Origin: Gammaproteobacteria bacterium
GTDB taxonomy: Bacteria; Pseudomonadota; Gammaproteobacteria; Burkholderiales; Rhodocyclaceae
DNA: 64,000 bases
Assembly (NCBI GenBank): GCA_018824085.1
Contig: JAHJHI010000054.1
Coordinates: forward strand, 7,362-71,361
Reading direction: 5' to 3'
Positions 16,602 to 43,242 of the stretch are shown here, piece by piece. The notes under the pieces were generated by a model, which made no database searches, was not told the origin of the DNA, and worked only from the letters and a program-made list of their open reading frames with translations. Made by a program: the position numbers and the translations under genes. The first letter of the stretch is position 1; every line of letters begins with the position of its first letter.

Positions 16602-17610
16602 GCATCAACTCCGCGATGCGGGCCGAAACATGGCCCGCGAGATCAGGGTCGAGGCAAGCCTCGACCGGCAATACCCACACAGGGGCGTCCGACAATCCGT
16701 GACATTTTACCGCGTCCTTCTCGGTAAGCAGCAGCCCATCGCACGCCGGAAAACGCAGGTCCTGCGCCGAATACACGTGGTGGTCGGCGAACGCATGCGC
16801 GGTGAACTCCAGTCCGAGCGCCCGCAGATGGTCGAAGAACCTGGCCGGCTCGCCGATGCCCGCCAGCGCATGCAGGCGCTGGCCGCGCAGCGCCTCCGCC
16901 TGAACCCGCTCCTGCGGCCGATCGAGGCGCACGAATGTGTCGCCCCGCAGGACCATGCGAAATACCGGAGCGGCATTCCGCCGAATGGCGGCAGGAAGGT
17001 CTCCACCGCCATTGATCACCAGTGCATCGACGTTTCCGAGTCGTGCCGCGGGCTCGCGCAACGGTCCCGCCGGCAGGTGCAGTCCGTTCATCAGGCCGCG
17101 CCGGTCGAGCACGGCGATCTCGATGTCGCGCGCCAGCGCGTAGTGCTGAAGTCCGTCATCACACAGCACCAGATCGCATTCGGGGTGCTGCGCCAGCGCA
17201 GCCCGCGCGGCTTCGGCGCGCCTGCGCCCGACCCATACCGGCACGCCCGCTCGACGGGCCAGCAGCAGCGCCTCGTCGCCGCAGTCGCGCGCGTCACCGT
17301 CGGGCAGCACCCGCCGCACGCCGTCACCGGCGCCGCCGTAGCCGCGTGACACGATCAGCGGATGATGGCCAAGTGCCGCGAGCGCTTGCGCGAGATGAAG
17401 GGTCAGCGGGGTCTTGCCGGCGCCACCGGCGATGATGTTGCCAATGACGACGACCGGCACCGGCAGCCTGGCCGTCCGCAACGCGCCGCATCGATACGCG
17501 CCGCGGCGCAGTGCGGCCAGCAGGCGGAACAGCAGCGACAGCGGCCACAGCAGCCAGGCCAGCACGCCACGGCTGCGCCAGTGTGCTGGCAGCGCACGCG
17601 CCGCACTCAT
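16582..17610 (-). CDS. lpxK: Tetraacyldisaccharide 4'-kinase
   Basis: [37 protein letters not shown]. Confidence 0.96.
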
Positions 17611-18035
17611 CGGCCGGCGGCGGTGTCTGACTGGGTCGCGAAGGAAATGCCGGAGATGCCTGCCTGCTGCGCGGCCTGCATGACGTCTATCGACGATTGC
17701 AGGCGGGCTTCGCGATCGGACGAGATGATGACCACCGGTTCCTGCTTGCCGGACGCAGCCTGCGCCAGCGCGGTACGCAGCGCGTCGGCGTCGCCGGCGG
17801 GCACCGGTTGACGATTGATCAGGATGTCGCCGCGCGCGGTGATCAGCACATTGATCTCGCGGTCGCCCGGATCGGATTCGGGCGCCTCGGCGCTGGGCAG
17901 CGTGATCTCCAGTCCGGCGGTTTTCGAATAGGAGGTGGTCACCATCAGGAAGATCAGGATGACCAGCAGCACGTCGATCAGCGGGATCAGGTTGATCTCG
18001 ACATCTTCGCGTCCGCGCCCGCGTCGGAAATTCAT
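17607..18035 (-). CDS. exbD: ExbD/TolR biopolymer transport protein
   Basis: EINLIPLIDVLLVILIFLMV. Confidence 0.92.
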   Translation of the reverse strand: MNFRRGRGREDVEINLIPLIDVLLVILIFLMVTTSYSKTAGLEITLPSAEAPESDPGDREINVLITARGDILINRQPVPAGDADALRTALAQAASGKQEPVVIISSDREARLQSSIDVMQAAQQAGISGISFATQSDTAAGR

Positions 18036-18044
18036 CGCCGGCCC

Positions 18045-18656
18045 CTACTTCGCGGAGCGTTCGCCGTGCACGACTTCGACCAGCTTGATCGCCTGCTGCT
18101 CCATGTCCACGACGAAGTCATCCACCAGCCCACGGAAATAGCGGTGAAAGATGAGCGCAGGAATGGCGACCAGCAAGCCGAATCCGGTGTTGTACAGCGC
18201 AATGGAAATACCGCTGGCGAGCTGCTGCGGATTGGCGCCGCTCGCCGTCTGGGAACCGAAGATTTCGATCATGCCGACGACCGTGCCGAACAGTCCCATC
18301 AGCGGCGCTGCGGCGGCGATGGTGCCGAGCGTGGTGAGATAGCGATCGAGATGATGCGCCACGGCGCGCCCCTCTTCCTCGATGGATTCCTTCATGACGA
18401 TGCGCGGACTGCGCACGCTGCGCAGTCCCGCCGCCAGCACGCGGCCAAGCGGCGAGTGGTTCGCAACACGACGTATCATGTCGGCGCCGGGCTGACCGCC
18501 CTTCAGGTCGGTCACGATGGAATCCAGCAATCCCGGAGGCACCACCTTGCTGCGACGCAGGCTTGTCAGCCGTTCCAGAATCAGCGCTAGCGCAATGATG
18601 GAGGCGGCGATCAACGGCCAGATCGGCCAGCCAGCCGCGCGGATGATGTCAAACAC
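18045..18656 (-). CDS. exbB: MotA/TolQ/ExbB proton-channel protein
   Basis: LGTIAAAAPLMGLFGTVVGMI, GISIALYNTGFGL; GTG start at 18656. Confidence 0.9.
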   Translation of the reverse strand: MFDIIRAAGWPIWPLIAASIIALALILERLTSLRRSKVVPPGLLDSIVTDLKGGQPGADMIRRVANHSPLGRVLAAGLRSVRSPRIVMKESIEEEGRAVAHHLDRYLTTLGTIAAAAPLMGLFGTVVGMIEIFGSQTASGANPQQLASGISIALYNTGFGLLVAIPALIFHRYFRGLVDDFVVDMEQQAIKLVEVVHGERSAK

Positions 18657-18747
18657 GTGGGATCCCCCGGTGAACAAGCGGCGAACTGTAGCCTGCGGGA
18701 CGTGACGGAGCAACCCTGGCCGGGCGGCACCGGCGCAGCCCGGCAAG

Positions 18748-24310: not shown

Positions 24311-24355
24311 TTGACAGCGACGCTGCCTTCTGTATTAATACGAACCATTCTCATT
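24311..24355 (+). promoter_or_regulatory. Sigma70 promoter overlapped by a Fur box (hemP-bfd-bfr)
   Basis: TTGACA at 24311, TATTAAT at 24333, Fur-like AATACGAACCATTCTCATT at 24337-24355. Confidence 0.8.
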
Positions 24356-24372: not shown

Positions 24373-24552
24373 ATGACTCAACACGCCGCCCCGCCGCCGC
24401 CTGCCACACCGCCGCCCGTGACGACGCACTCACAGCCTGCGCTGGATTCGGCGCAACTGCTTGGTGGCCAGAAACAGATCGCCATCAATCACGGTGGCGA
24501 GCTGTATTCGTTGCGCGTCACGCGCAACGGCAAGCTGATCCTGACCAAATAG
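24373..24552 (+). CDS. hemP: Hemin uptake regulator HemP/HmuP
   Basis: LDSAQLLGGQKQIAINHGGELYSLRVTRNGKLILTK; C-terminal KLILTK signature. Confidence 0.93.
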   Translation: MTQHAAPPPPATPPPVTTHSQPALDSAQLLGGQKQIAINHGGELYSLRVTRNGKLILTK

Positions 24553-25777: not shown

Positions 25778-26584
25778 ATGAGCAGCGCAGCATTTGCCGG
25801 AACCTCGTTCCCACCCGACGCCGCCCCGCCCGAACGCCCGGCACGTGCAGCAGCCCATGCCGTTCGACGCGGCAATCCCGCCGCGACGCGCATCGGCCTG
25901 CCCCTGCGCACAACGGCGCTGATCGCGGCGTTGCTGGTGCATGCGCTGGCGCTGCTGTGGATCTCCGCCAAGCCGGTGGAACCCGTTGTATTGCCGGTGC
26001 TCATGCAGGCGACGCTGATTGCGCCCGAACCGTTGCCGGTCGCGCCGCCGGAACCGCCCAAGGTCGTCCAGGAGGTCGTGCCGGAGCCGCCCAAACCGGT
26101 GAAAAAGCCGGTTCCGAAGCGCAAGGAAGTGGCGCTGCCCAAGCTGGTGGCCAAGGAAGATGCTCCGAGCGTCCAGACCGCCCCGCCCCAGGCTCCGCCA
26201 CCGCCGGAACCCGTCGCCATCGACGCCGCCCCGGCCGCACCCGTGGCGCCCGCGCCGGCCCCGGTGTCCGCCGCACCGGTCGTCGCTCCGCCGCCACCGG
26301 TCAGCCCGCCCCGCTTCAATGCCGACTATCTGGTGAATCCGGCTCCCGCCTATCCGCCAATGTCTCGGCGCATGGGTGAAGAAGGCAGGGTGCTGCTGCG
26401 CGTCATGGTGGAAGCCGACGGCACGCCGTCCAGCGTGGAAGTGCGCACATCGAGCGGCTTTCCGCGACTGGATCGCGCAGCGCAGGAGGCCGTACGCAAG
26501 TGGAAATTCGTGCCGGCACGGCGCGGTGAGGATGCCGTGGCCGGTGCAGTAAACGTGCCCATCGACTTCGGGCTGCGTGGATGA
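25778..26584 (+). CDS. tonB: Energy transducer TonB
   Basis: TM anchor with VH motif, Pro-rich linker, YPPMSRRMGEEGRV, SSGFPRLDRAA. Confidence 0.93.
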   Translation: MSSAAFAGTSFPPDAAPPERPARAAAHAVRRGNPAATRIGLPLRTTALIAALLVHALALLWISAKPVEPVVLPVLMQATLIAPEPLPVAPPEPPKVVQEVVPEPPKPVKKPVPKRKEVALPKLVAKEDAPSVQTAPPQAPPPPEPVAIDAAPAAPVAPAPAPVSAAPVVAPPPPVSPPRFNADYLVNPAPAYPPMSRRMGEEGRVLLRVMVEADGTPSSVEVRTSSGFPRLDRAAQEAVRKWKFVPARRGEDAVAGAVNVPIDFGLRG

Positions 26585-26594
26585 TTTGACCCGC

Positions 26595-26633
26595 ATCGCC
26601 GCCGGCGTACACTGCGCGGCGATCGATTTTTTT
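26595..26633 (+). terminator. Terminator-like hairpin between tonB and exbB
   Basis: ATCGCCGC/GCGGCGAT stem followed closely by seven T. Confidence 0.5.
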
Positions 26634-26662
26634 GTATCTGGCTTCCCTCAGGAGACTGCTGA

Positions 26663-27436
26663 ATGAATGATTCCCTTGGTTTTGCGCACTTTCTGGCAAA
26701 TGCAGACGGTGTTGCGACCACCATCCTCGTGCTGATGGTCTTTGCATCGGTCGGTACCTGGTTCCTCATCGTGCTCAAAGGCATCGTTGCGGTACGCCAG
26801 CGCAGCGCAAGCAGCCGCTTCATGGACCGTTTCTGGAACGCTCCGTCGCTGGAAGACGTTGCCCGTTACATGGGCGCAAACGGTGTCACGGACCCGTTCT
26901 CGCATCTCGTTCACGAAGGCTTCAGCGCTGTGGAGACACTGCGCAGCGGCGTCGCCGGAACACGTGGCCTGATCGCCACCGGCAGCGCCGACGAGTTCCT
27001 GACGCGCGCGCTCAAGCGTTCGATCGAACGTGATCGCAGCCGCATGGAGTATGGCCAGACCTTCCTCGCGTCAGTCGCGTCGAGCGCCCCCTTCATCGGC
27101 CTTCTCGGCACCGTGTGGGGCATCTACCACGCACTGCTGGCCATCGGCATGTCGGGTCAGGGCACGCTGGACAAGGTCGCCGGACCGGTGGGCGAGGCGC
27201 TCATCATGACGGCCATCGGCCTGGCGACCGCCATTCCCGCTGCGCTGGCATTCAACTTCTTCGCCCGATCGACCCGCAACGTCATGGCCGAGCTGAACAG
27301 CTTTGCGCACGACGTGTTCGTGATGCTGTCGACCGGCGTCAAGGACAGCGGCGCAAACGACCCGAAGGCCACCGGCGACCGCGTGCTGTCGCTGGTTGAA
27401 AGCGGCCGCGCGGCAATCCGTCCGGCAACGACCTGA
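26663..27436 (+). CDS. exbB: ExbB
   Basis: ASSAPFIGLLGTVWGIY, VGEALIMTAIGL; follows tonB. Confidence 0.93.
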   Translation: MNDSLGFAHFLANADGVATTILVLMVFASVGTWFLIVLKGIVAVRQRSASSRFMDRFWNAPSLEDVARYMGANGVTDPFSHLVHEGFSAVETLRSGVAGTRGLIATGSADEFLTRALKRSIERDRSRMEYGQTFLASVASSAPFIGLLGTVWGIYHALLAIGMSGQGTLDKVAGPVGEALIMTAIGLATAIPAALAFNFFARSTRNVMAELNSFAHDVFVMLSTGVKDSGANDPKATGDRVLSLVESGRAAIRPATT

Positions 27437-27449
27437 ACCGGAGCACAAC

Positions 27450-27869
27450 ATGGCCTTCGCAAGTTTCGAACAGGACGATGACGGACCGATGGCGGAAATC
27501 AACATGATTCCGCTGATCGACGTGATGCTGGTACTGCTCATCATTTTCATGGTGACCGCGCCCTTGCTCACGCACGCCGTCAAGGTTGATCTGCCCAAGG
27601 AATCCACCGCTGCGAATCAGTTGCCGCCGGAGAACATCCAGATTGCGATCGGGCCCGATGAACAGCTGTACTGGGCCGGCGAGAAGATCGATGACGCCAC
27701 GCTGAGGGCGCGGCTCGAAGAAGCAGCCGCCCGCGACAAGACCGCCGAGATCCAGCTTCGCGCAGACCAGAACGTGCCCTATCGCTCGGTGGCCCATGTC
27801 ATGAGCGAAGCGGCCCGCCTCGGTCTCACACGCATCGGCTTCGTGACCGATCCCAGCGCGGCGAAGTAA
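27450..27869 (+). CDS. exbD: ExbD
   Basis: EINMIPLIDVMLVLLIIFMVTAP, LRAD. Confidence 0.93.
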   Translation: MAFASFEQDDDGPMAEINMIPLIDVMLVLLIIFMVTAPLLTHAVKVDLPKESTAANQLPPENIQIAIGPDEQLYWAGEKIDDATLRARLEEAAARDKTAEIQLRADQNVPYRSVAHVMSEAARLGLTRIGFVTDPSAAK

Positions 27870-28087: not shown

Positions 28088-28132
28088 TTGACTGTCCGCG
28101 CATCGCGTGATTGAATGCGAATCGTTCTTATT
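28088..28132 (+). promoter_or_regulatory. Promoter with Fur box for the small ORF-rpsD2-PEP-CTERM-receptor operon
   Basis: TTGACT at 28088; Fur-like AATGCGAATCGTTCTTATT at 28114-28132. Confidence 0.75.
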
Positions 28133-28250
28133 CATAAGAGCGATTTGCCAGCTACCTGCCCCCCCGCAGGACTCCGCCAGCCTCCCTTGTACGTCCCACG
28201 TGACCACCGCGCACATGCCTGCGCCCGTCACCACTACGGAGGATGCATCG

Positions 28251-28496
28251 ATGACCCCCGAACAGAACCCTGCGGGCGAAGCCAGTCCCAGCACGCTTGC
28301 CGCCGCCACGCTGTTCGTGATGACGCGCTTTGCCGAACGCCCGTGCCCGGAAGTCGCCCAGATGGTGATCCGCCATCTCGAGGTCGTTGCCGACGACGAT
28401 CGCGCCGACCCGCTGATGCGCGAGGTCTGCGGCGCGCTGATCAACCGCTGGACCCTGCACACCGTCGGCGATCTCGCGCTGCGCCCCACTCATTGA
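28251..28496 (+). CDS. Small hypothetical helical protein (81 aa) with Cys/His residues
   Basis: GGAGG RBS 8 nt upstream of the ATG; first gene after the Fur box; TLFVMTRFAERPC...RHL...EVCGALINRW. Confidence 0.7.
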   Translation: MTPEQNPAGEASPSTLAAATLFVMTRFAERPCPEVAQMVIRHLEVVADDDRADPLMREVCGALINRWTLHTVGDLALRPTH

Positions 28497-28520
28497 CGAC
28501 CGCACCCACCCGGAGAACAC

Positions 28521-29135
28521 ATGTCCCGCTATACCGGCCCCCGTCTGCGCATCGTCCGTGCGCTCGGCACTGACCTGCCCGGCCTGACAAGAAAAACGCC
28601 GTCCAATCGTCCGGCACCGCCGGGCCAGCACGGCAGCCGTCCCAACCGTCGCAAGTCGGAGTTCGGCGCCCAGCTGATGGAAAAACAGAAGCTGCGCTAC
28701 AACTACGGCCTGAATGAAACGCAACTTCGCGGCGTGTTCCGGGAGGCCGAGCGCTCCCGTCTGCCGACCGGCGAAAAACTGGTCGAGCTGCTGGAACGCC
28801 GGCTCGACAACATCGTGTTCCGCGGTGGCCTCGCGCCGACGATTCCGGCTGCGCGACAACTCGTGCGTCATCGTCACGTACTGCTGAACGGCAAGCGCGT
28901 GAACATCCCGTCGATCCGCCTGCGCGTCGGTGACACCATCACGGTGACCGAACGCGGCCGCAAGGTGCAGAGCGTTGTCGACGCCTTGGCCAATGCGCCT
29001 CTTGAGCGCGCCGAGTGGATCGTGTTCGATGAGGCGACACTCAGCCTGCGTCTGGCCCATCTGCCACCGGGCGACGCCACGCCGTTCGCATTCGAAGCCC
29101 AGAAAGTCGTGGAGTTCTACGCCCTGCGCGTGTGA
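28521..29135 (+). CDS. rpsD: 30S ribosomal protein S4 paralog outside the alpha operon
   Basis: MSRYTGPR, PPGQHG, EKQKLRYNYGL, LLERRLDNIVFR, AARQLVRH, VVEFY. Confidence 0.93.
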   Translation: MSRYTGPRLRIVRALGTDLPGLTRKTPSNRPAPPGQHGSRPNRRKSEFGAQLMEKQKLRYNYGLNETQLRGVFREAERSRLPTGEKLVELLERRLDNIVFRGGLAPTIPAARQLVRHRHVLLNGKRVNIPSIRLRVGDTITVTERGRKVQSVVDALANAPLERAEWIVFDEATLSLRLAHLPPGDATPFAFEAQKVVEFYALRV

Positions 29136-29378
29136 GCTTCATGTGCCCGGTCCGCGACACGGATCGCGGACACCCCGAGCCAGCCAGACCCGGTCATTCG
29201 TGGTCAGCCAGTCATGCATCCCCGGAAGGAGAACGCGATGACCGCTGACCACAGCCGATTCGACCCGCAAGCAAACCGTCACATTCCGTCGCGCCCGCCG
29301 CGACAACAGGCACGCGCCGGCCACCGCAACCCGCACGGTCGCGACACCTGTTCAACCCATTACAGAGAGAGGTCCACC

Positions 29379-30137
29379 ATGCTGCAGAAACACCTTCGTA
29401 CCAGCGCAACACGTGCACTGATCGCCGTTGCAACCATTGCCGCAACCGGTCTGGCACACGCCAACGCCACGCACAGCGCCTTCAGCGATCCCGCCGATTC
29501 GGTCGCCACGGACGGTTTCAACAACCTGACCTCGGCCCGCCTCACAGCCGCTGATCTCGTCGCGGGCGTCGCGTCGAACACGGAAACGGACGGCAATGCG
29601 GTGCTGACCAGGACGTCGGGCGGGGCATACCCGGCGTCGTCGGGCCTGTATCAGTGGAGCGGCAGCGGATCGACCTTCGCAATGTCGGTCTCCAACGCCG
29701 TTGATGGTCTGACCGGCATCGTGTTCCAGAGCTACATCAACGTCAGCACAGGTGCCAATGGAATCTTCGGGCTGCTGTCGGCGGACAACCTGCCTCGCCT
29801 CAACTTCAACGGTGGCGAACAGTTCCTGCTTGCCTCGACGCAGACGAGCGAAAACCTGGGCTACACCGACTTCTTCACCGGCCAGTTCGTTGCATCGGAT
29901 CCGAACAACCCCAATCACGTCACCTTCACGTGGGACTTTGCCAGTCTCGGCGTCACGGTGCCGGTCGACAGCTTCACCATCACGTTCGCGACCGACAACC
30001 ACGCCCAGACCACAGCGTTCCAGCTCGATCAGTTGTCGGTTGCCGCGCCGGTACCCGAGCCGCAAACGGCTGCGATGCTGCTCGGAGGCATGGCTGTGAT
30101 CTCGCTGATCGCCCGTCGCCGCAAGAACCTGAACTGA
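29379..30137 (+). CDS. PEP-CTERM surface protein 1 (alternative in-frame start at 29238)
   Basis: Signal peptide; C-terminal VPEPQTAAMLLGGMAVISLIARRRK. Confidence 0.9.
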   Translation: MLQKHLRTSATRALIAVATIAATGLAHANATHSAFSDPADSVATDGFNNLTSARLTAADLVAGVASNTETDGNAVLTRTSGGAYPASSGLYQWSGSGSTFAMSVSNAVDGLTGIVFQSYINVSTGANGIFGLLSADNLPRLNFNGGEQFLLASTQTSENLGYTDFFTGQFVASDPNNPNHVTFTWDFASLGVTVPVDSFTITFATDNHAQTTAFQLDQLSVAAPVPEPQTAAMLLGGMAVISLIARRRKNLN

Positions 30138-30214: not shown

Positions 30215-32542
30215 GTGAAAACGCATAGATTTGTCTGCGTGTCGCTGCTCGGCACCCTCCTGTTGCCGACGATCTCCGTCGGGCAGGACGCATCCCGTGA
30301 CGAGGATGTCACCACGCTGCCCGAGGTCGAAGTACGGGACAAACGGGAATTGCGGCGCGCGCCGGATGTGGAGCTGCCGTCTGACCGCCCGGTCACCACG
30401 ATAACGGCTGAAGCAATAGAACGCCGGCAAGCTGACACGATATTCGACCTTCTGCGCGACACACCCGGAGTTGGCGTCAATGGCGGACCGCGCGCCAGCG
30501 GCATGAAGTTCAATCTGCGGGGTTTCTCGGACAACGAAGACGTGCTGTTCAAGATTGACGGCGCAGTCAAGGGTTTCGAGAAATACCGCTTCGGCAGCGG
30601 CGTCTTCATTGAACCCGAATTGCTCAAGGCGGTGGAAGTGGAAAGAGGGCCGTCGGTCAAATCCGGCTCCGGAGCGCTGGGCGGCACTGTTTCGGCAACC
30701 ACGAAGTCGGCTGCCGATTACCTCGCACCGGGTCAGCGCATCGGCAGCACACTGAAATACGGCTACAACGCAAACAACGCCGAGCGGCTGCGCATGCTCA
30801 CTGTCTATGGCCGGCCAAGCGGGTATCTCGATCTCGTTGCGTCAATCGCGCTGCGCGATTCGGACGACATTCGCCTGCCCGACCGCAGCCGGCTTTCCCT
30901 GACGGCCACTCATTCCGAAAGTCGCTTCGCCAAAGCCACCATCTACGCGACCGATGCACTGACGGTGGAGCTGAGTCAGACCATGTACAAGAGCGGTCCC
31001 GAGCGCACGCCCTACGACGCTACCGCGGGCGGCCCGGGCGGATTCGGCGTGGTCGAGCGAACGATTGAAGACACCACGACAAATCTTCGCGTGAATTACA
31101 CGCCGGAAGATTCATGGATTGCACTTCGCGCGACACTTGCATATGAAGAAACCGACCTGAATGACGTACACCGGAGCCAGCAGAGCAATGTGTGCGTGAC
31201 ACCACCCATGTTTCCTCCCTCGCAGCGCGTCGATCGCTGTGACGATCATTGGCAGTACGCGATCTGGACGGCCGAAGTTTTCAACGACACGCACTATGAT
31301 TTCGGCGAGCTGAAAGGCGTGCTGTCGATCGGCTACCAGGGGATACGTAACCGTCGCGATATCTCCCGCATCCGTTCGGGGGCACGAACCGATGAAGACA
31401 TATCGCGGGGTGGTTTCGTCGCCGCACAGCCCCCGGGGAACAAGATTTCGGACGCACTCATCGTCGAGAACGCTTTCACGTGGCGCGATATCACCATCAC
31501 TCCTGGCGCGCGAATGGACCGCTATCACGTCAGTGCCATGGGGCATACCCGCACCATGATGATTGAAGCCGGTCAGTCACCGGACATCCGGTTTTCCAGA
31601 GTCTCGCCTGCGATTGCCATGACCTGGCGCATTCCCGATAGCGACTGGTCAACAACCCTGCGCTACAACGAAGCGTTTCGTCCGCCGCTGATCGACGAGT
31701 ATTTCGCGGCTGGCAGCGAGTCGGCAAGCCGGTGCATAAAAACCAGCGGCAGAGCGAATCTGCCGGGCCACCCCGTACTCGATCCGCTACCGTTGTACGA
31801 CCGCTCCGGTGTCGGCCTTCCCTATGATCCCGCCCTCGATCTCGCGCCGGACAACGGGATATGCGGCGCGCTGTACCGCCCGCAAGAATCCTCAAATCAT
31901 GAATTGATATTCGCGTGGATGCCGAATCCGGTGGCCCCGACGGACGGCCGCTGGCGGGCACGCGCAACGTATTACGACATCCATACCCGCAACAAGCTGG
32001 ACTCCATCTCCAATATCGGCGGCGCAATCGGCCAGCCGGGCACCGAAAGACGCAAAGGCACCGAGCTCGAAATCAGCTATGACGGGATTCGCTGGTTCTC
32101 GTCGGTGAACTGGTCGCAAATCACCGGTCGCATCGTCGACCCGGTCGCCGGCACCGACTACGTGCTTTATGGCGTACCCGGGGACACACTGAGCATCAGC
32201 GCCGGATTTCGCGGATTCGACGGTCGCGTCGAAGCGGGCCTGCGCATGCGCGACATTGCCGACCGACTCGCCACGGAACCCAGTCAGCCCACCGATTGCT
32301 GGCGCGCTGGCTCTCAGCTCGTTCCCGGCCTTGGATCAAACAAGATCCGCCTCGGCACCCAGCATGGCGTACGCCTGCTCGACCTTTTCGCCAGCATGCA
32401 GGTCACGTCCGACACGGTATTGCGCCTGAACGTCGACAACATCACCAACGAGAACTATTGCCTGCCGGACGGCTTCGCCGGCTCGGTCGGCATTCAGGCG
32501 CCGGGCCGCAGCGCCAGAGTGTCGCTGACGATGAGCTTCTGA
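30215..32542 (+). CDS. TonB-dependent heme/hemoglobin-family receptor
   Basis: Signal peptide, TonB-box-like TLPEVEV, plug NLRG...DG, VEVERGP, FRAP-like AFRPP, C-terminal GRSARVSLTMSF; adjacent to hmu genes. Confidence 0.85.
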   Translation: MKTHRFVCVSLLGTLLLPTISVGQDASRDEDVTTLPEVEVRDKRELRRAPDVELPSDRPVTTITAEAIERRQADTIFDLLRDTPGVGVNGGPRASGMKFNLRGFSDNEDVLFKIDGAVKGFEKYRFGSGVFIEPELLKAVEVERGPSVKSGSGALGGTVSATTKSAADYLAPGQRIGSTLKYGYNANNAERLRMLTVYGRPSGYLDLVASIALRDSDDIRLPDRSRLSLTATHSESRFAKATIYATDALTVELSQTMYKSGPERTPYDATAGGPGGFGVVERTIEDTTTNLRVNYTPEDSWIALRATLAYEETDLNDVHRSQQSNVCVTPPMFPPSQRVDRCDDHWQYAIWTAEVFNDTHYDFGELKGVLSIGYQGIRNRRDISRIRSGARTDEDISRGGFVAAQPPGNKISDALIVENAFTWRDITITPGARMDRYHVSAMGHTRTMMIEAGQSPDIRFSRVSPAIAMTWRIPDSDWSTTLRYNEAFRPPLIDEYFAAGSESASRCIKTSGRANLPGHPVLDPLPLYDRSGVGLPYDPALDLAPDNGICGALYRPQESSNHELIFAWMPNPVAPTDGRWRARATYYDIHTRNKLDSISNIGGAIGQPGTERRKGTELEISYDGIRWFSSVNWSQITGRIVDPVAGTDYVLYGVPGDTLSISAGFRGFDGRVEAGLRMRDIADRLATEPSQPTDCWRAGSQLVPGLGSNKIRLGTQHGVRLLDLFASMQVTSDTVLRLNVDNITNENYCLPDGFAGSVGIQAPGRSARVSLTMSF

Positions 32543-33473: not shown

Positions 33474-33502
33474 TTGACACTTCAATACGAATCATTATCA
33501 TT
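33474..33502 (+). promoter_or_regulatory. Sigma70 promoter with Fur box for the small ORF-PEP-CTERM-hmuSTUV operon
   Basis: TTGACA at 33474; AATACGAATCATTATCATT at 33484-33502. Confidence 0.85.
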
Positions 33503-33541: not shown

Positions 33542-33730
33542 ATGGCCGACGCACCCTGCACGCCGGATTCACTGAAAACACGGCTGGTCACCTTGCTGGA
33601 CGAGCTGATACGCCATGACGGCTTCGGCTCGCTCAGCGTCGAGGTGCGCCTGCTCAAGCGCGGCCAGAAGGAAGTCATCATCGACTGCGGCAAGCAATAC
33701 CGCTACGTCATCGATTTCGCACCCGGCTGA
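33542..33730 (+). CDS. Small hypothetical protein (62 aa)
   Basis: First ORF after the Fur box; protein-like sequence LLDELIRHDGFGSLSVEVRLLKRGQKEVIIDCGKQYRYVIDF. Confidence 0.8.
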   Translation: MADAPCTPDSLKTRLVTLLDELIRHDGFGSLSVEVRLLKRGQKEVIIDCGKQYRYVIDFAPG

Positions 33731-33852
33731 AACACACCGGGTAGCAGGCAAGACCTTCCGGCGGCGCGGGGCCGCGGAACATCCAATTGCAACATCCGCC
33801 TGAAACGTCGCCTTCGCGGGGAAGGGATGCATGGCTCGAACCGGGGTTCAAC

Positions 33853-34500
33853 ATGTCATTCCATCACCTGTGCACCACGGGCGCACTGTGCCTGCTCGCC
33901 TCCACTTCCGCTTTCGCGACCTCCGCCGCGTGGGACACCCCGCTCGCCGGATACAGCGGTGACGGCACCTCCAGTGCGGCACCCTGGGCGTCCGGCGCCG
34001 CCTACGCCGAGTGGAACGTTTTCGACAGCGCGTCCAGCGACGCCACGCCGGACATCGCCGGCAGCGGCACGCTCAGCCAGACGTCGCCCGGCGCAGGCGC
34101 CTTCCTGACCGGCAGCGGCAACATCTACAGCGCAGGCGGCGGCGCGGCCTTCTCGATCGATCTCGTCTCCTCGCTGACCGGCTCCTACGACATCTGGCTG
34201 CGCGTCGCCACCCAGGGCACCGCGGCCGACAGCGTCGCGACGCTCAACGGCATCGCGGCGACGAAGCAGGTGTCATTCAGCGCCGTGCTGGGCGGCTTTG
34301 GCGGCAGCGAAGAAGAAGCCTACTGGCACTGGACCGTATCCAGTCCGCTCGCGCTGCAGTTCAGCTTCGGCAGCTCGGAAGCGCACATGAGCCTCGACCA
34401 GCTCGCGGTTCTCGCCGCACCGGTGCCGGAACCCGCCACCTGGTTGTCGCTGGCCGCCGGCCTCGGTGTCATCGGCGCACTCGCGCGCCGTCGCGCCTGA
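33853..34500 (+). CDS. PEP-CTERM surface protein 2
   Basis: Signal peptide; C-terminal VPEPATWLSLAAGLGVIGALARRR. Confidence 0.9.
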   Translation: MSFHHLCTTGALCLLASTSAFATSAAWDTPLAGYSGDGTSSAAPWASGAAYAEWNVFDSASSDATPDIAGSGTLSQTSPGAGAFLTGSGNIYSAGGGAAFSIDLVSSLTGSYDIWLRVATQGTAADSVATLNGIAATKQVSFSAVLGGFGGSEEEAYWHWTVSSPLALQFSFGSSEAHMSLDQLAVLAAPVPEPATWLSLAAGLGVIGALARRRA

Positions 34501-40893: not shown

Positions 40894-40912
40894 ATCGATA
40901 ACCATTCTCATT
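40894..40912 (+). promoter_or_regulatory. Fur box upstream of the siderophore receptor
   Basis: ATCGATAACCATTCTCATT in an AT-rich promoter region. Confidence 0.7.
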
Positions 40913-41022
40913 TACAATAAATTACATGAGTCGGGAACTTCCTTGAACACCCCGCCCGCTCAGGACCAGCCAGCCCTTCTGCAAGCCAGTCCCCGCCAAC
41001 CCATATTCCAGGACTGACGCAG

Positions 41023-43242
41023 ATGAAGAAACACGCTCCGCCGCAGCCGCTGTCGCTGGCTGCCGCCATGCTGATGGCGCTTTCAAATACCGCCATCGCT
41101 GACGACACCGTCAAACAGACCGACCCGACCGCGACGCTGCCCGAAGTCAAGGTGCGCGACGCGAGGGAACGTCCGAATTCGCCCAACACCGGCTATCAGG
41201 CCGGCGTCATCCGCTCCACGAAGACGAAACAGCTGGCCAAGGACATTCCGCAGGCGATCACGACGGTGACCGAGCAGCTCATGCTCGACAGCAATTCCGA
41301 CACGATGAAGAGCGCGCTGCGTCACGTCGCCGGCCTGACCTTCAATTCGGGCGAAGGCGGGCGCATCGGCGACAACATCATGCTGCGCGGCTTCTACTCC
41401 TTCGGCGACCTCTATCTGGACGGCATTCGCGACGTTGCGCAGTACAACCGCGAAGTCTTCCACGTGGAACAGATCGACATACTGCGCGGCTCGGCCGCCA
41501 TGCTGTTCGGCCGTGGCCAGGCCGGCGGCGTCATCAACCGCGTCAGCAAGGAACCGGGCCTGGTCGACCACACGGAGGTGTCGGCCACCGTCGGCAGCTA
41601 TTCCTACGGCCGCCTCACCGCCGACGTGAACAAGGTGCTCGGCGAAAACATGGCGCTGCGCATCAGCGCGATGAAGACGGACGCGGAAAGCTCGCGCCGC
41701 GGCGTTGAAACCGACCGTGAAGGCCTGGCACCCACGCTGCGCTGGGGCATCGGCACCGCCAACGAATTCTCGATCGGTCACCTGTACCTGTCGACCGACG
41801 ACGTGCCGGATTTCGGCGTGCCCTTCGTCGCCACTCCAGGCGCCGTGACCGCAACGGGCGTGAAGCGCAGGCCGCTGGACGTGCCGGCAAGCCGCTTCTA
41901 CGGCACGCCCTCGGACTACGAGAAGAACGACACGAACATCACGACCGGCAGCTGGACGCACCGCTTCTCGCAAGATACCGAGCTGAGGACGGTTGCACGC
42001 TTTGCCGACTACAAGCGGGCGCTCTGGGTCACCCAGGCGATACTGGTGGGGGCAGACACCTCAACGGTGAACGATTCGTCGGTAATCCGCCGCAGTCAGA
42101 AGGCCCGTGGCGGGCACGAACGCACCGCCACGCTGCAGAGCGACTTGACGACGAAGTTCGACGCGGCCGGCATGAAGCACGAAGTGCTCGTCGGCGCCGA
42201 ACTGCTGAAGGAAAAGGCCGATCGTTGGAACTACACGGCGCTGACGGCCGGAGAACAGGCCGCCCTGAATACAACCGTCGGCAATGCGAACTCCGATCCG
42301 GTTCTGCCGGCAGGCTATGGCAACCGTACGCACAATAACCCGGCCTCTTATGACGGCGACTCGATCGGCGTCTATGCGCAGGACCAGATCGAATTCATTC
42401 CGCAGTGGAAGTTGCTCCTCGGCATTCGCCACGACCGCATGGATGCCGATTACACGCGACAGGCTGGCGGCATCACGACCGAAACGACACTGAAGTTCAA
42501 CGAGTGGAGCTATCGGAGCGGTCTGCTGTATCAGCCGGACGATCAGTCGTCGTACTACCTTGCATGGAGTGATTCGTTCAATCCGACCGCCGATCTGTAT
42601 CAGTTGAACAACGGCGTCGAATACGACGCGGAGCGCAGCCGCACGATCGAGCTGGGTACCAAGTGGGAACTGCTGGACGGCGCGCTGTCGTTGCGCACCG
42701 CGCTGTACCGCGCAACCAAGTTCAACGAGCGAAACACCGACCTGGAGCAGCCGAACATTTCCGTGCTGTCCAAGGAACGGCATACCGACGGTTTCGAGAT
42801 TGAAGCCGCCGGCCGCCTCACGAGCCGCTGGGACGTGTTCGCGGGCGTCGCGCTGATGCGCTCGCGCATCGACGACGTGTTCGTCGGGGTCAACAACCCC
42901 AACATGGTAGGGCAGCGGCCGCGCAACACGCCACCGTACACCGCCAATCTCTGGACGACCTATCGCGTCGGTGAAAGCTGGCGCGTCGGTGGCGGCATTG
43001 AAGCCAAGGGCAAGCGTCTCGCGTATGGAACGGGCGGCACCAATCCGATCTCGATGGCCCGCGTACCGGACTTCATCCGCGCCGACCTGATGCTGGCCTA
43101 CGAGCAACCGCGCTACAGCGTGAAGCTGAACGTGCTCAACGTGTTCAACAAGCGCTACTACGAGTCGGTCTATGAAAACGGCGGCTTCACCGTGCCGGGT
43201 ACCGAACGCGCGTTCCAGCTGACCACCACGCTCAAGTTCTGA
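41023..43242 (+). CDS. TonB-dependent siderophore receptor (Fiu/PiuA-like)
   Basis: TLPEVKV, DIPQAIT, GEGG..GDNIMLRGF, YLDGIRD, terminal Phe; followed by piuC. Confidence 0.9.
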   Translation: MKKHAPPQPLSLAAAMLMALSNTAIADDTVKQTDPTATLPEVKVRDARERPNSPNTGYQAGVIRSTKTKQLAKDIPQAITTVTEQLMLDSNSDTMKSALRHVAGLTFNSGEGGRIGDNIMLRGFYSFGDLYLDGIRDVAQYNREVFHVEQIDILRGSAAMLFGRGQAGGVINRVSKEPGLVDHTEVSATVGSYSYGRLTADVNKVLGENMALRISAMKTDAESSRRGVETDREGLAPTLRWGIGTANEFSIGHLYLSTDDVPDFGVPFVATPGAVTATGVKRRPLDVPASRFYGTPSDYEKNDTNITTGSWTHRFSQDTELRTVARFADYKRALWVTQAILVGADTSTVNDSSVIRRSQKARGGHERTATLQSDLTTKFDAAGMKHEVLVGAELLKEKADRWNYTALTAGEQAALNTTVGNANSDPVLPAGYGNRTHNNPASYDGDSIGVYAQDQIEFIPQWKLLLGIRHDRMDADYTRQAGGITTETTLKFNEWSYRSGLLYQPDDQSSYYLAWSDSFNPTADLYQLNNGVEYDAERSRTIELGTKWELLDGALSLRTALYRATKFNERNTDLEQPNISVLSKERHTDGFEIEAAGRLTSRWDVFAGVALMRSRIDDVFVGVNNPNMVGQRPRNTPPYTANLWTTYRVGESWRVGGGIEAKGKRLAYGTGGTNPISMARVPDFIRADLMLAYEQPRYSVKLNVLNVFNKRYYESVYENGGFTVPGTERAFQLTTTLKF

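Follow-up and report, generated by a model that had tools for sequence, protein, structure and literature searches.

In Bacillus, Streptomyces and Mycobacterium, Zur regulates cysteine-lacking (C-) paralogs of the ribosomal proteins L31, L33, L36, S14, S18 and L28. Ribosomal proteins can also act beyond the ribosome; in Escherichia coli, S4 (uS4) is both the translational repressor of the alpha operon and a component of rrn antitermination. Here we analyze a 64,000-nucleotide (64-kb) stretch of contig JAHJHI010000054.1, hereafter called the window, whose host we assign to Methyloversatilis (Rhodocyclales). Among heme-uptake genes, the window carries a gene for a cysteine-free paralog of S4 (an rpsD paralog). 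Our analysis concerns this gene, the small gene that directly precedes it and the Fur-type box upstream of both.

Cysteine-free S4 paralogs of proteobacteria have been known since 2009, when Chen, Roberts and Luthey-Schulten described a C-(IV) class of S4. Their survey recorded C-(IV) paralogs outside the alpha operon in Nitrosomonas europaea and in the deltaproteobacteria Myxococcus xanthus, Sorangium cellulosum and Bdellovibrio; the paralog-bearing genomes have a cysteine-containing (C+) S4 in the alpha operon (PMC3087516). Methylobacillus flagellatus has a C-(IV) S4 only, and this gene also lies outside the alpha operon (PMC3087516). The authors of the survey suggested that the paralogs had been transferred horizontally from the cyanobacterial side. 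They detected no Zur sites, identified no regulator and never mentioned iron (PMC3087516). Other second copies of S4 likewise respond to a physiological switch that is not zinc, namely the sporulation-induced C-(V) paralogs of Clostridia and the two S4 genes of M. xanthus, whose expression diverges in development. These pairs differ from the gene analyzed here in S4 subclass and trigger, and neither a partner protein nor a Fur box has been reported for them.

A further described system with bearing on the window is the control of heme uptake by HemP (also called HmuP or ChuP). ChuP of Chromobacterium violaceum activates chuR and vbuA at a post-transcriptional level, and none of the chu DNA probes tested was bound by it; the HmuP-responsive elements (HPREs) are CCCGCAAGCCAGCCGACAGCCAGCCAGCG in chuR and GCCAGCCAGACGACGCCGCCG in vbuA, and the HemP/HPRE system operates in both C. 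violaceum and Ensifer meliloti (PMC9131926).

Results

The S4 paralog

The protein encoded by the paralog (Table 1) consists of a Ribosomal_S4 domain (PF00163; residues 3–92, 72 bits) followed by an S4 domain (PF01479; residues 93–140, 63 bits). It passes the NCBIfam equivalog models NF003717 (score 224.9, cut-off 116) and TIGR01017 (204.7, cut-off 177.2). Cysteine is absent from the protein, and a ribosome-binding site, GGAGAA, is placed 6–11 nt before its ATG. We found no rpsM, rpsK or rpoA near the gene and no ribosomal operon anywhere in the window. Domain matches, equivalog scores, cysteine count and neighboring genes thus all agree with the initial annotation, which had described a full-length, cysteine-free S4 lacking its usual operon neighbors. 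The nearest named proteins are Methyloversatilis proteins annotated as S4, with 87–89% identity, and on this ground the window is assigned to that genus. At 51 alignment columns that are at least 85% conserved among canonical S4 proteins, the paralog clade retains the majority residue in 45. A dN/dS ratio of 0.09–0.10 indicates purifying selection on the paralog that is as tight as that on bfr.

Canonical S4 proteins of beta- and gammaproteobacteria begin with MARY(I/T)GPK(C/A)KLSRREGTDLFLKS. The paralog begins with MSRYTGPRLRIVRALGTDLPGLTRK, an "LPGLTRK" type that is clearly unlike the canonical one. In a neighbor-joining tree, a check that the initial annotation had proposed, paralogs of Methyloversatilis, Thauera, Azospira, Dechloromonas/Azonexus, Azoarcus, Azovibrio and Uliginosibacterium form one group together with S4 proteins from metagenome-assembled genomes (MAGs) of Methylophilaceae and Moraxellaceae. 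In this tree, which included no cyanobacterial sequence, the group nests among S4 proteins of Myxococcota, Oligoflexia and Zetaproteobacteria, at a large distance from the canonical beta/gamma clade. The nearest solved S4 structures are of Bacteroidota type (176 and 152 bits), followed by spinach chloroplast (131 bits) and by E. coli, Pseudomonas aeruginosa and Acinetobacter baumannii (121–127 bits). An earlier description of the N-terminus as cyanobacterial or plastid-like was therefore right in separating it from the canonical beta/gamma type and only loosely right in the resemblance that it named.

We assign the paralog to the C-(IV) class. It shares with the paralogs of the 2009 survey the absence of cysteine, an LPGL(S/T)RK-type N-terminus, a location outside the alpha operon, a position foreign to the canonical clade of its host and the lack of a Zur site. 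What sets it apart are the Fur-type box, the small partner gene in its fixed place and the hemP/HPRE neighbors; the Myxococcota loci that we fetched show none of these three, including no homologue of the partner.

The canonical S4 gene

M. flagellatus provides a precedent for a genome in which the only rpsD is of this type (PMC3087516), and the paralog might be the sole S4 gene of its own genome as well. To judge this reading, canonical betaproteobacterial alpha operons were collected by scanning metagenome contigs, and a GC-rich locus with the genes secY, rpsM, rpsK, rpsD, rpoA and rplQ (L162) served as reference. One Methyloversatilis isolate, represented by runs X67 and X68 (4.2–4.7 Mb of contig sequence), contains 100% of the sampled words of the paralog locus of M. 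universalis (L008). A single 21-kb contig of this isolate is colinear with secY-rpsM-rpsK-rpsD-rpoA of the reference, including a 77-nt match inside rpsD, and its rpsK and rpoA anchors are separated by 933 nt versus 962 nt in the reference. The letters that flank the 77-nt piece translate in frame to ..QHGQKSGQR.. and ..RVYAEAERRK.., which are of the canonical type; at the corresponding places the paralog has QHGNRPNRRK and GVFREAERSR. Because an isolate with the paralog locus also has rpsD between rpsK and rpoA, the paralog is a second S4, as had been claimed at the outset, and the notion of a single rpsD is refuted for the M. universalis-type isolate.

In the metagenome from which the window derives, two runs gave depths of 32 and 21.9 for the window and of 37.4 and 27.4 for a 3.8-kb contig with the layout of an alpha operon, on which the anchors are 772 nt apart (800 nt in the reference). 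The window strain very probably also has a canonical rpsD, and we give the sole-copy reading next to no chance of being correct.

The Fur-type box

The spacer between exbD and the two-gene module formed by the small gene and the S4 paralog has diverged among three Methyloversatilis species (the window and loci L007 and L008). Within it, the putative -35 hexamer and the Fur-type box stand out as conserved islands, and GCGCTTGAC is invariant. A strict consensus promoter scan gave no match to the putative promoter at 28088–28116, and a scan of the window with the classical E. coli Fur 19-mer, allowing up to 3 mismatches, gave none either. We derived a local 19-mer motif from the boxes of hemP and the S4 module. 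With up to 3 mismatches, this motif has 3 matches in the window versus 0 expected from 100 shuffles; they lie before hemP, the S4 module and the hmu operon, and a fourth, looser copy precedes the siderophore receptor.

Similar boxes precede the paralog in at least nine other taxa, at distances of 340–630 bp. In Thauera, two Dechloromonas, Azonexus and Azoarcus, a box with at most 4 mismatches to the local or classical consensus lies 340–460 bp before the start of the paralog; Azoarcus olearius BH72 has its box at -535, and the Moraxellaceae MAG, with two small open reading frames (ORFs), has it at -627. The background for such boxes is about 1 match per 21 kb. At least 7 of 10 independent loci have a box within a 400-bp zone, for which the binomial probability is about 1e-10. 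From the local regulon motif that it shares and from its conservation across species, rather than from a direct match to the consensus, we infer that the box is a Fur operator. The earlier choice of a Fur-type over a Zur-type box is thereby upheld.

These results bear on a zinc-type replacement, in which the cysteine-free paralog would spare zinc, or iron bound by four cysteines, by substituting for a metal-binding canonical S4. The lack of cysteine in the paralog would suit such a role, as would the setting of the module in Thauera and Azospira (L001 and L003), where it lies next to hemP within a TonB-receptor/CobN-like/ExbB-like/DUF2149 cluster, a type of cluster that is Zur-regulated in Pseudomonas. 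The C+ S4 in the alpha operons of the paralog-bearing genomes points in the same direction (PMC3087516). However, two Zur-type palindromes scanned across the window gave no match, and the 2009 survey found no Zur site near S4 paralogs (PMC3087516). The box instead matches the promoter motif of hemP, hmu and the siderophore receptor, Thauera has a Fur-like promoter of its own immediately before the small ORF, and GC-rich canonical betaproteobacterial S4 proteins carry two cysteines rather than four. We consider the zinc-type replacement highly unlikely.

The small partner protein

Further analysis of the small gene revealed a dedicated partner of the paralog. The initial annotation had noted neither this conserved gene, nor the link to hemP and HPRE-like motifs, nor the description of cysteine-free S4 paralogs in 2009. 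By residue count, the partner protein carries a net charge of about -4, and its gene has a dN/dS ratio of 0.15–0.19. An AlphaFold (AF2) model folds into a three-helix bundle with a disordered tail (pLDDT 79), for which a Foldseek search against the PDB returned no meaningful match (best E about 1). All database relatives are labeled hypothetical. Homologues lie 15–25 nt 5' of the S4 paralog in essentially all beta- and gammaproteobacterial loci, with extra copies upstream or downstream in some, and the arrangement of small ORF and S4 with this spacing is kept across at least 12 taxa of two classes. The aligned sequences have invariant W67 and H42 and a variable tail, and 38 of the 39 end in histidine.

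An exhaustive profile search expanded the family to 216 clusters of 43–181 amino acids; a C-terminal histidine occurs in 88 of the 147 newly listed representatives checked. One distant member precedes hemS, another is flanked by a TonB receptor and an ABM-fold/CbiX-like pair, and a third is flanked by an ATP-binding cassette (ABC) transporter ATPase gene (HmuV-like by eye) and the gene for ChaN, a heme-binding protein. The partner gene is thus accessory to heme-uptake loci; in one lineage the S4 paralog has become fixed beside it, and since then the two have moved together. Family members may bind heme or metal.

Two observations on this family and its gene stand apart. Members of about 80–120 amino acids recur in heme-uptake loci (window 28251–28496; L171 45–296; L172 4768–5313; L173 747–1031). 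In M. universalis-like strains, strain-variable 28-nt insertions (TTCCGCGCGCTGATTTGCGCGCATTGAT and a similar one; L008 9936–9964) separate the small ORF from S4 and resemble a small repeat element.

The module in other genomes

GC-rich comparison loci were read by hidden Markov model and motif scans and from pre-annotated loci, since greedy ORF calls are unreliable there. The genes that accompany the module differ between taxa. The module adjoins imelysin/DUF1513, bfr and bfd in the Moraxellaceae MAG and is divergent from an extracytoplasmic function (ECF) sigma factor/FecR/receptor set in A. olearius BH72. The order in Azonexus is small ORF, S4, hemP, receptor and ABC transporter genes; in Niveibacterium, the module stands alone with no receptor or hemP gene near. 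The genes that follow it thus range from a PEP-CTERM gene with a receptor gene through hemP and ExbB-like genes to nothing related to iron. This variation disfavors an operon-specific, cis-acting factor, which the initial annotation had offered as one of two possible roles, and the varied downstream genes together with the solitary module of Niveibacterium fit a general role in trans.

The CobN-like cluster of Thauera and Azospira may take up heme by a dechelatase-type system, and not cobalt or zinc. In Azonexus hydrophilus (L169 3796–5628), a gene for a DeaD/CsdA-type DEAD-box helicase, a ribosome-biogenesis factor, lies directly 5' of the module, which may be a coincidence. In the Dechloromonas MAG (L049), an S4 with 47% identity was considered as the canonical copy and rejected; it is the frameshifted paralog.

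HPRE-like motifs and hemP

hemP lies directly 3' of the paralog in Dechloromonas, Azonexus and Azovibrio and directly 5' of it in Uliginosibacterium. In Azonexus and Dechloromonas, the module leader contains strong tandem copies of AGCCAGCCAG at the same place as the weak motif pair of the window (Table 1). A second HPRE-like pair of the window lies between S4 and the PEP-CTERM/receptor genes. GCCAGCCAGAC is identical to the first part of the vbuA HPRE of C. violaceum (PMC9131926), and a similar pair (40963–40990) precedes the siderophore receptor. GCCAGCCAG-type motifs also occur at L010 5778–5815, L012 9638–9670 and L003 1437–1470, in leaders of receptor or small-ORF/S4 genes. The GCCAGCC 7-mer alone is common, with about 43 copies per window, so that the weak leader copies carry little weight; CAGCCAGTCATGC is not enriched in the window (4 matches versus 3.1 expected). 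The HPRE-like leader motifs suggest a HemP-dependent, post-transcriptional layer above Fur. The window resembles the HemP/HmuP/ChuP-HPRE system in its hemP gene, which is often adjacent to the paralog elsewhere, in its GCCAGCCAG-type leader motifs, which are only weak in the leader of the window's own module, and in its presumed Fur-repressed operons; it differs in that neither an S4 paralog nor a His-tail protein is mentioned in the parts of that report consulted (PMC9131926).

The same motifs invite a different reading, in which the paralog is an extraribosomal RNA-binding regulator. Perhaps together with the His-tail protein and HemP, it would bind receptor leaders that carry HPREs (GCCAGCCAG), or it would bind the alpha-operon leader and throttle ribosome synthesis. 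In favor of such a regulator, hemP directly adjoins the paralog in Dechloromonas, Azonexus, Azovibrio and Uliginosibacterium, and HPRE-like tandems lie in the module leader of Azonexus and Dechloromonas and between the S4 and receptor genes of Methyloversatilis. The paralog has also diverged further than S4 proteins that have to serve as the sole copy, and ChuP/HmuP acts post-transcriptionally through HPREs without binding the DNA (PMC9131926). The basis of this reading is E. coli S4, which away from the ribosome can also target mRNA and transcription complexes; there it is the canonical protein that acts on its own operon, and no RNA resembling the alpha-operon leader was detected at the window locus. 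We know of no such S4 paralog reported in C. violaceum or E. meliloti, where the HemP/HPRE system nonetheless works, and this counts against a regulator of that system. Moreover, the whole uS4 architecture with 45 of 51 universal positions is more than a binder of an mRNA motif needs, the module of Niveibacterium has no receptor or hemP nearby, and the 7-mer is common in the GC-rich window. An Rfam scan of the window gave no family, and no conserved RNA structure was found close to the paralog. A regulatory role of this general kind is the main rival to the model proposed in the Discussion and is possible but on the whole rather unlikely. In its specific form, the paralog and its His-tail partner would act as the RNA-binding effector of the HemP/HmuP switch and recognize the HPREs (GCCAGCCAG) in leaders of mRNAs for heme and siderophore receptors, the leader of the paralog itself among them; a ribosomal protein fold would thus serve as an mRNA regulator responsive to iron or heme. 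This form appears improbable.

Expression of the module

Two sediment metatranscriptomes that contain an M. universalis-like strain cover the locus with RNA contigs. These cover exbD, skip a promoter gap of about 200–300 nt, resume 9–59 nt past the box and extend over the small ORF and S4. Because the contigs run through both genes from just past the box, the small ORF and S4 are one transcription unit. In one run, a 614-nt RNA contig extends from the last part of S4 into the first part of the PEP-CTERM gene; in another run the depth drops to zero there. A third run contains a cDNA contig with a template-switch oligonucleotide at L008 10770, which marks a distinct RNA 5' end downstream of S4 and ahead of the PEP-CTERM gene and may reflect a second promoter or a processing site. 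RNA depth is higher on the PEP-CTERM gene than upstream. Some read-through from S4 reaches the receptor genes, which probably have another source of transcript as well. The co-transcription first proposed is thus partly supported, by the contig across the junction, and the separate 5' end and higher downstream depth point to an additional start. A 2026 preprint on a Methyloversatilis strain reports that siderophore treatment up-regulates its "full iron processing cluster", in a text that does not name the S4 gene.

No credible intrinsic terminator was predicted around the S4 module. The GC-rich hairpin that follows the paralog (Table 1) was not called a terminator by the scan and is not conserved in the Methyloversatilis loci L007 and L008. 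The only "terminator" that the scan did predict is spurious; it overlaps the 5' end of the Fur-type box.

Genes surrounding the module

The 5' neighbors of the module are hemP, bfd, bfr, tonB, exbB and exbD. On its 3' side lie genes for a PEP-CTERM protein and a heme-type TonB-dependent receptor, beyond which hemS and hmuTUV belong to another operon. The receptor scores 243.8 bits against TIGR01785, for which the cut-off is 316.85. Features of the window are collected in Table 1.

Table 1 Features of the S4 module and of neighboring iron genes in the window
Feature	Position	Strand	Remarks
hemP (HmuP/ChuP family, PF10636)	24373..24552	+	4 kb upstream of the S4 module; own Fur-type box at 24337-24355
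Putative -35 hexamer TTGACT	28088..28093	+	TTGAAT 17 nt further, at 28111-28116
Putative Fur-type operator, near-palindrome AATGCGAATCGTTCTTATT	28114..28132	.	Overlaps putative -10 (second hexamer) and transcription start
GCCAGC(C) motif pair in the 5' leader of the module	28147-28152, 28176-28182	+	Weakly HPRE-like; positions conserved in the Methyloversatilis alignment
Gene for 81-aa acidic three-helix protein ending in His	28251..28496	+	Stop 24 nt before S4 start; no Pfam or NCBIfam match
uS4 gene (rpsD paralog, assigned to C-(IV) type, Cys-free)	28521..29135	+	204 aa, ATG start
GC-rich 8-bp hairpin GTCCGCGA/TCGCGGAC	29150..29171	+	15 nt past S4 stop, no U-tract; seen in predicted fold
HPRE-like pair AGCCAGCCAGAC ... 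CAGCCAGTCATGC	29178..29217	+	Between S4 and PEP-CTERM/receptor genes; conserved in three species
Gene for PEP-CTERM sorting-signal protein	29379..30137	+	PF07589 and NCBIfam PEP-CTERM models
TonB-dependent receptor	30215..32542	+	Plug and barrel domains; best family heme/hemoglobin receptor, below cut-off
Fur-type box of the hmu operon	33484..33502	.	Operon comprises a 62-aa ORF, PEP-CTERM protein, hemS and hmuTUV
Fur-type box	40894..40912	.	Before siderophore receptor (41023-43242); followed by HPRE-like CCAGCCAGCC...AAGCCAGTCC

Two PEP-CTERM proteins (29379–30137 and 33850–34500) are encoded directly 5' of the heme-type receptor and of hemS, respectively, and are odd companions for iron uptake. 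The 62-aa ORF that heads the hmu operon after its Fur-type box (33542–33730; ..DCGKQYRYVIDF..) has no family match and is conserved at L008 14970–15176. An additional ExbB/ExbD-like pair on the minus strand (17607–18746) is distinct from tonB-exbB-exbD at 25778–27869.

Discussion

The best explanation of these findings is that nucleotides 28251–29135 of the window constitute a two-gene module at the head of a heme-type receptor operon, with an S4 gene that was acquired horizontally. We propose that the module is a Fur-repressed, iron-starvation-induced dicistron whose S4 enters new 30S subunits as an alternative ribosomal protein, with the acidic partner as its escort or modulator. When iron is sufficient, Fur would occupy the box over the -10 and the transcription start and keep the module silent. 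Iron starvation would allow the module to be transcribed, possibly with help from HemP acting on the GCCAGCC (HPRE-like) motifs of the leader. The paralog, in which almost all universally conserved uS4 positions are kept, would then most likely bind the 5' domain of 16S rRNA and replace canonical uS4 in a fraction of new 30S subunits. In the resulting iron-starvation ribosomes, the protein concerned with accuracy and mRNA entry would be an altered one. The small acidic partner would escort the very basic S4 paralog or modulate it. Compensation for lost Fe-S-dependent modifications, such as those by RimO on uS12 and MiaB on tRNA, is a possible benefit.

We give this model as a whole an even chance of being correct. 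Its regulatory half, that is Fur repression and induction by iron starvation, has the better support, and we regard it as quite probable. The ribosomal half draws on sequence conservation and on the reported occurrence of this S4 type as the only S4 of a cell. In particular, the sole C-(IV) S4 of M. flagellatus and the position of a Methylophilaceae S4 inside the paralog clade argue that the type is competent in ribosomes.

Several observations weigh against this model. Compared with the E. coli Fur 19-mer consensus, the box before the S4 module shows 8 mismatches, more than the boxes of the hmu operon (6) and the siderophore receptor (5). For the window organism itself, the sole trace of a canonical rpsD is the metagenome contig of similar depth. 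The canonical betaproteobacterial S4 proteins from GC-rich metagenome sequences have their two cysteines within residues 1–45, and these do not form a zinc ribbon; because of this, no metal-sparing logic is evident for the paralog. Within the genus Methyloversatilis, the paralog has diverged by 11–14%. Its TIGR01017 score is the lowest among the S4 proteins compared, those of Methylophilaceae, Sorangium and canonical betaproteobacteria reaching 231–266 bits (265.5 for the canonical betaproteobacterial protein). Finally, the S4 gene is frameshifted in the finished BH72 genome (L167 7274–7893) and in the Dechloromonas MAG (L049 10001–10619), with the partner gene intact in both; either the paralog is dispensable in these lineages, or the frameshifts are sequencing errors.

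The low family score and the frameshifted copies, together with the patchy taxonomic distribution of a gene from a foreign clade, would also be expected of a passenger or decaying xenolog, a transferred S4 that landed behind an iron-regulated small gene and has little or no function of its own. The selection on the paralog, as tight as that on bfr, speaks against such a fate. In addition, at least 12 taxa have kept the small ORF and S4 as a pair, the two have changed loci together, and the pair is expressed in environmental RNA. We therefore consider a mere passenger improbable and retain the iron-regulated alternative S4 as our working model.

Like the Zur-regulated C- ribosomal proteins, the S4 paralog is a cysteine-lacking copy of a core ribosomal protein that is encoded among metal-uptake genes and appears to be controlled by metal starvation. 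It differs from them in that its motif is of the Fur type, that its canonical counterpart is not apparently metal-binding, and that uS4 is a primary assembly and accuracy protein rather than a peripheral zinc ribbon. In the literature that could be searched, nothing was found that ties an S4 paralog to Fur, iron or hemP or that describes the His-tail family. The Fur-type box, the partner ending in histidine and the link to hemP and HPRE-like motifs appear to be new.

Alternative ribosomal proteins are the textbook response to zinc starvation and involve peripheral zinc-ribbon proteins; in the window, a second copy of a primary 30S assembly and decoding-accuracy protein appears to be wired to the iron regulon instead. 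The module recurs with its dedicated partner across many Rhodocyclales and beyond. If the paralog does enter ribosomes, it would define an iron-starvation-specific ribosome, open to purification and to tests of its accuracy and mRNA preference. Should it stay off the ribosome, it would be a candidate for a missing RNA-level component of the HemP/HPRE control of heme uptake. In either case, the analysis defines an uncharacterized family of small proteins of heme-uptake loci, and the apparently dispensable two-gene module offers a genetic handle in the culturable Methyloversatilis universalis, Azospira and Azonexus.

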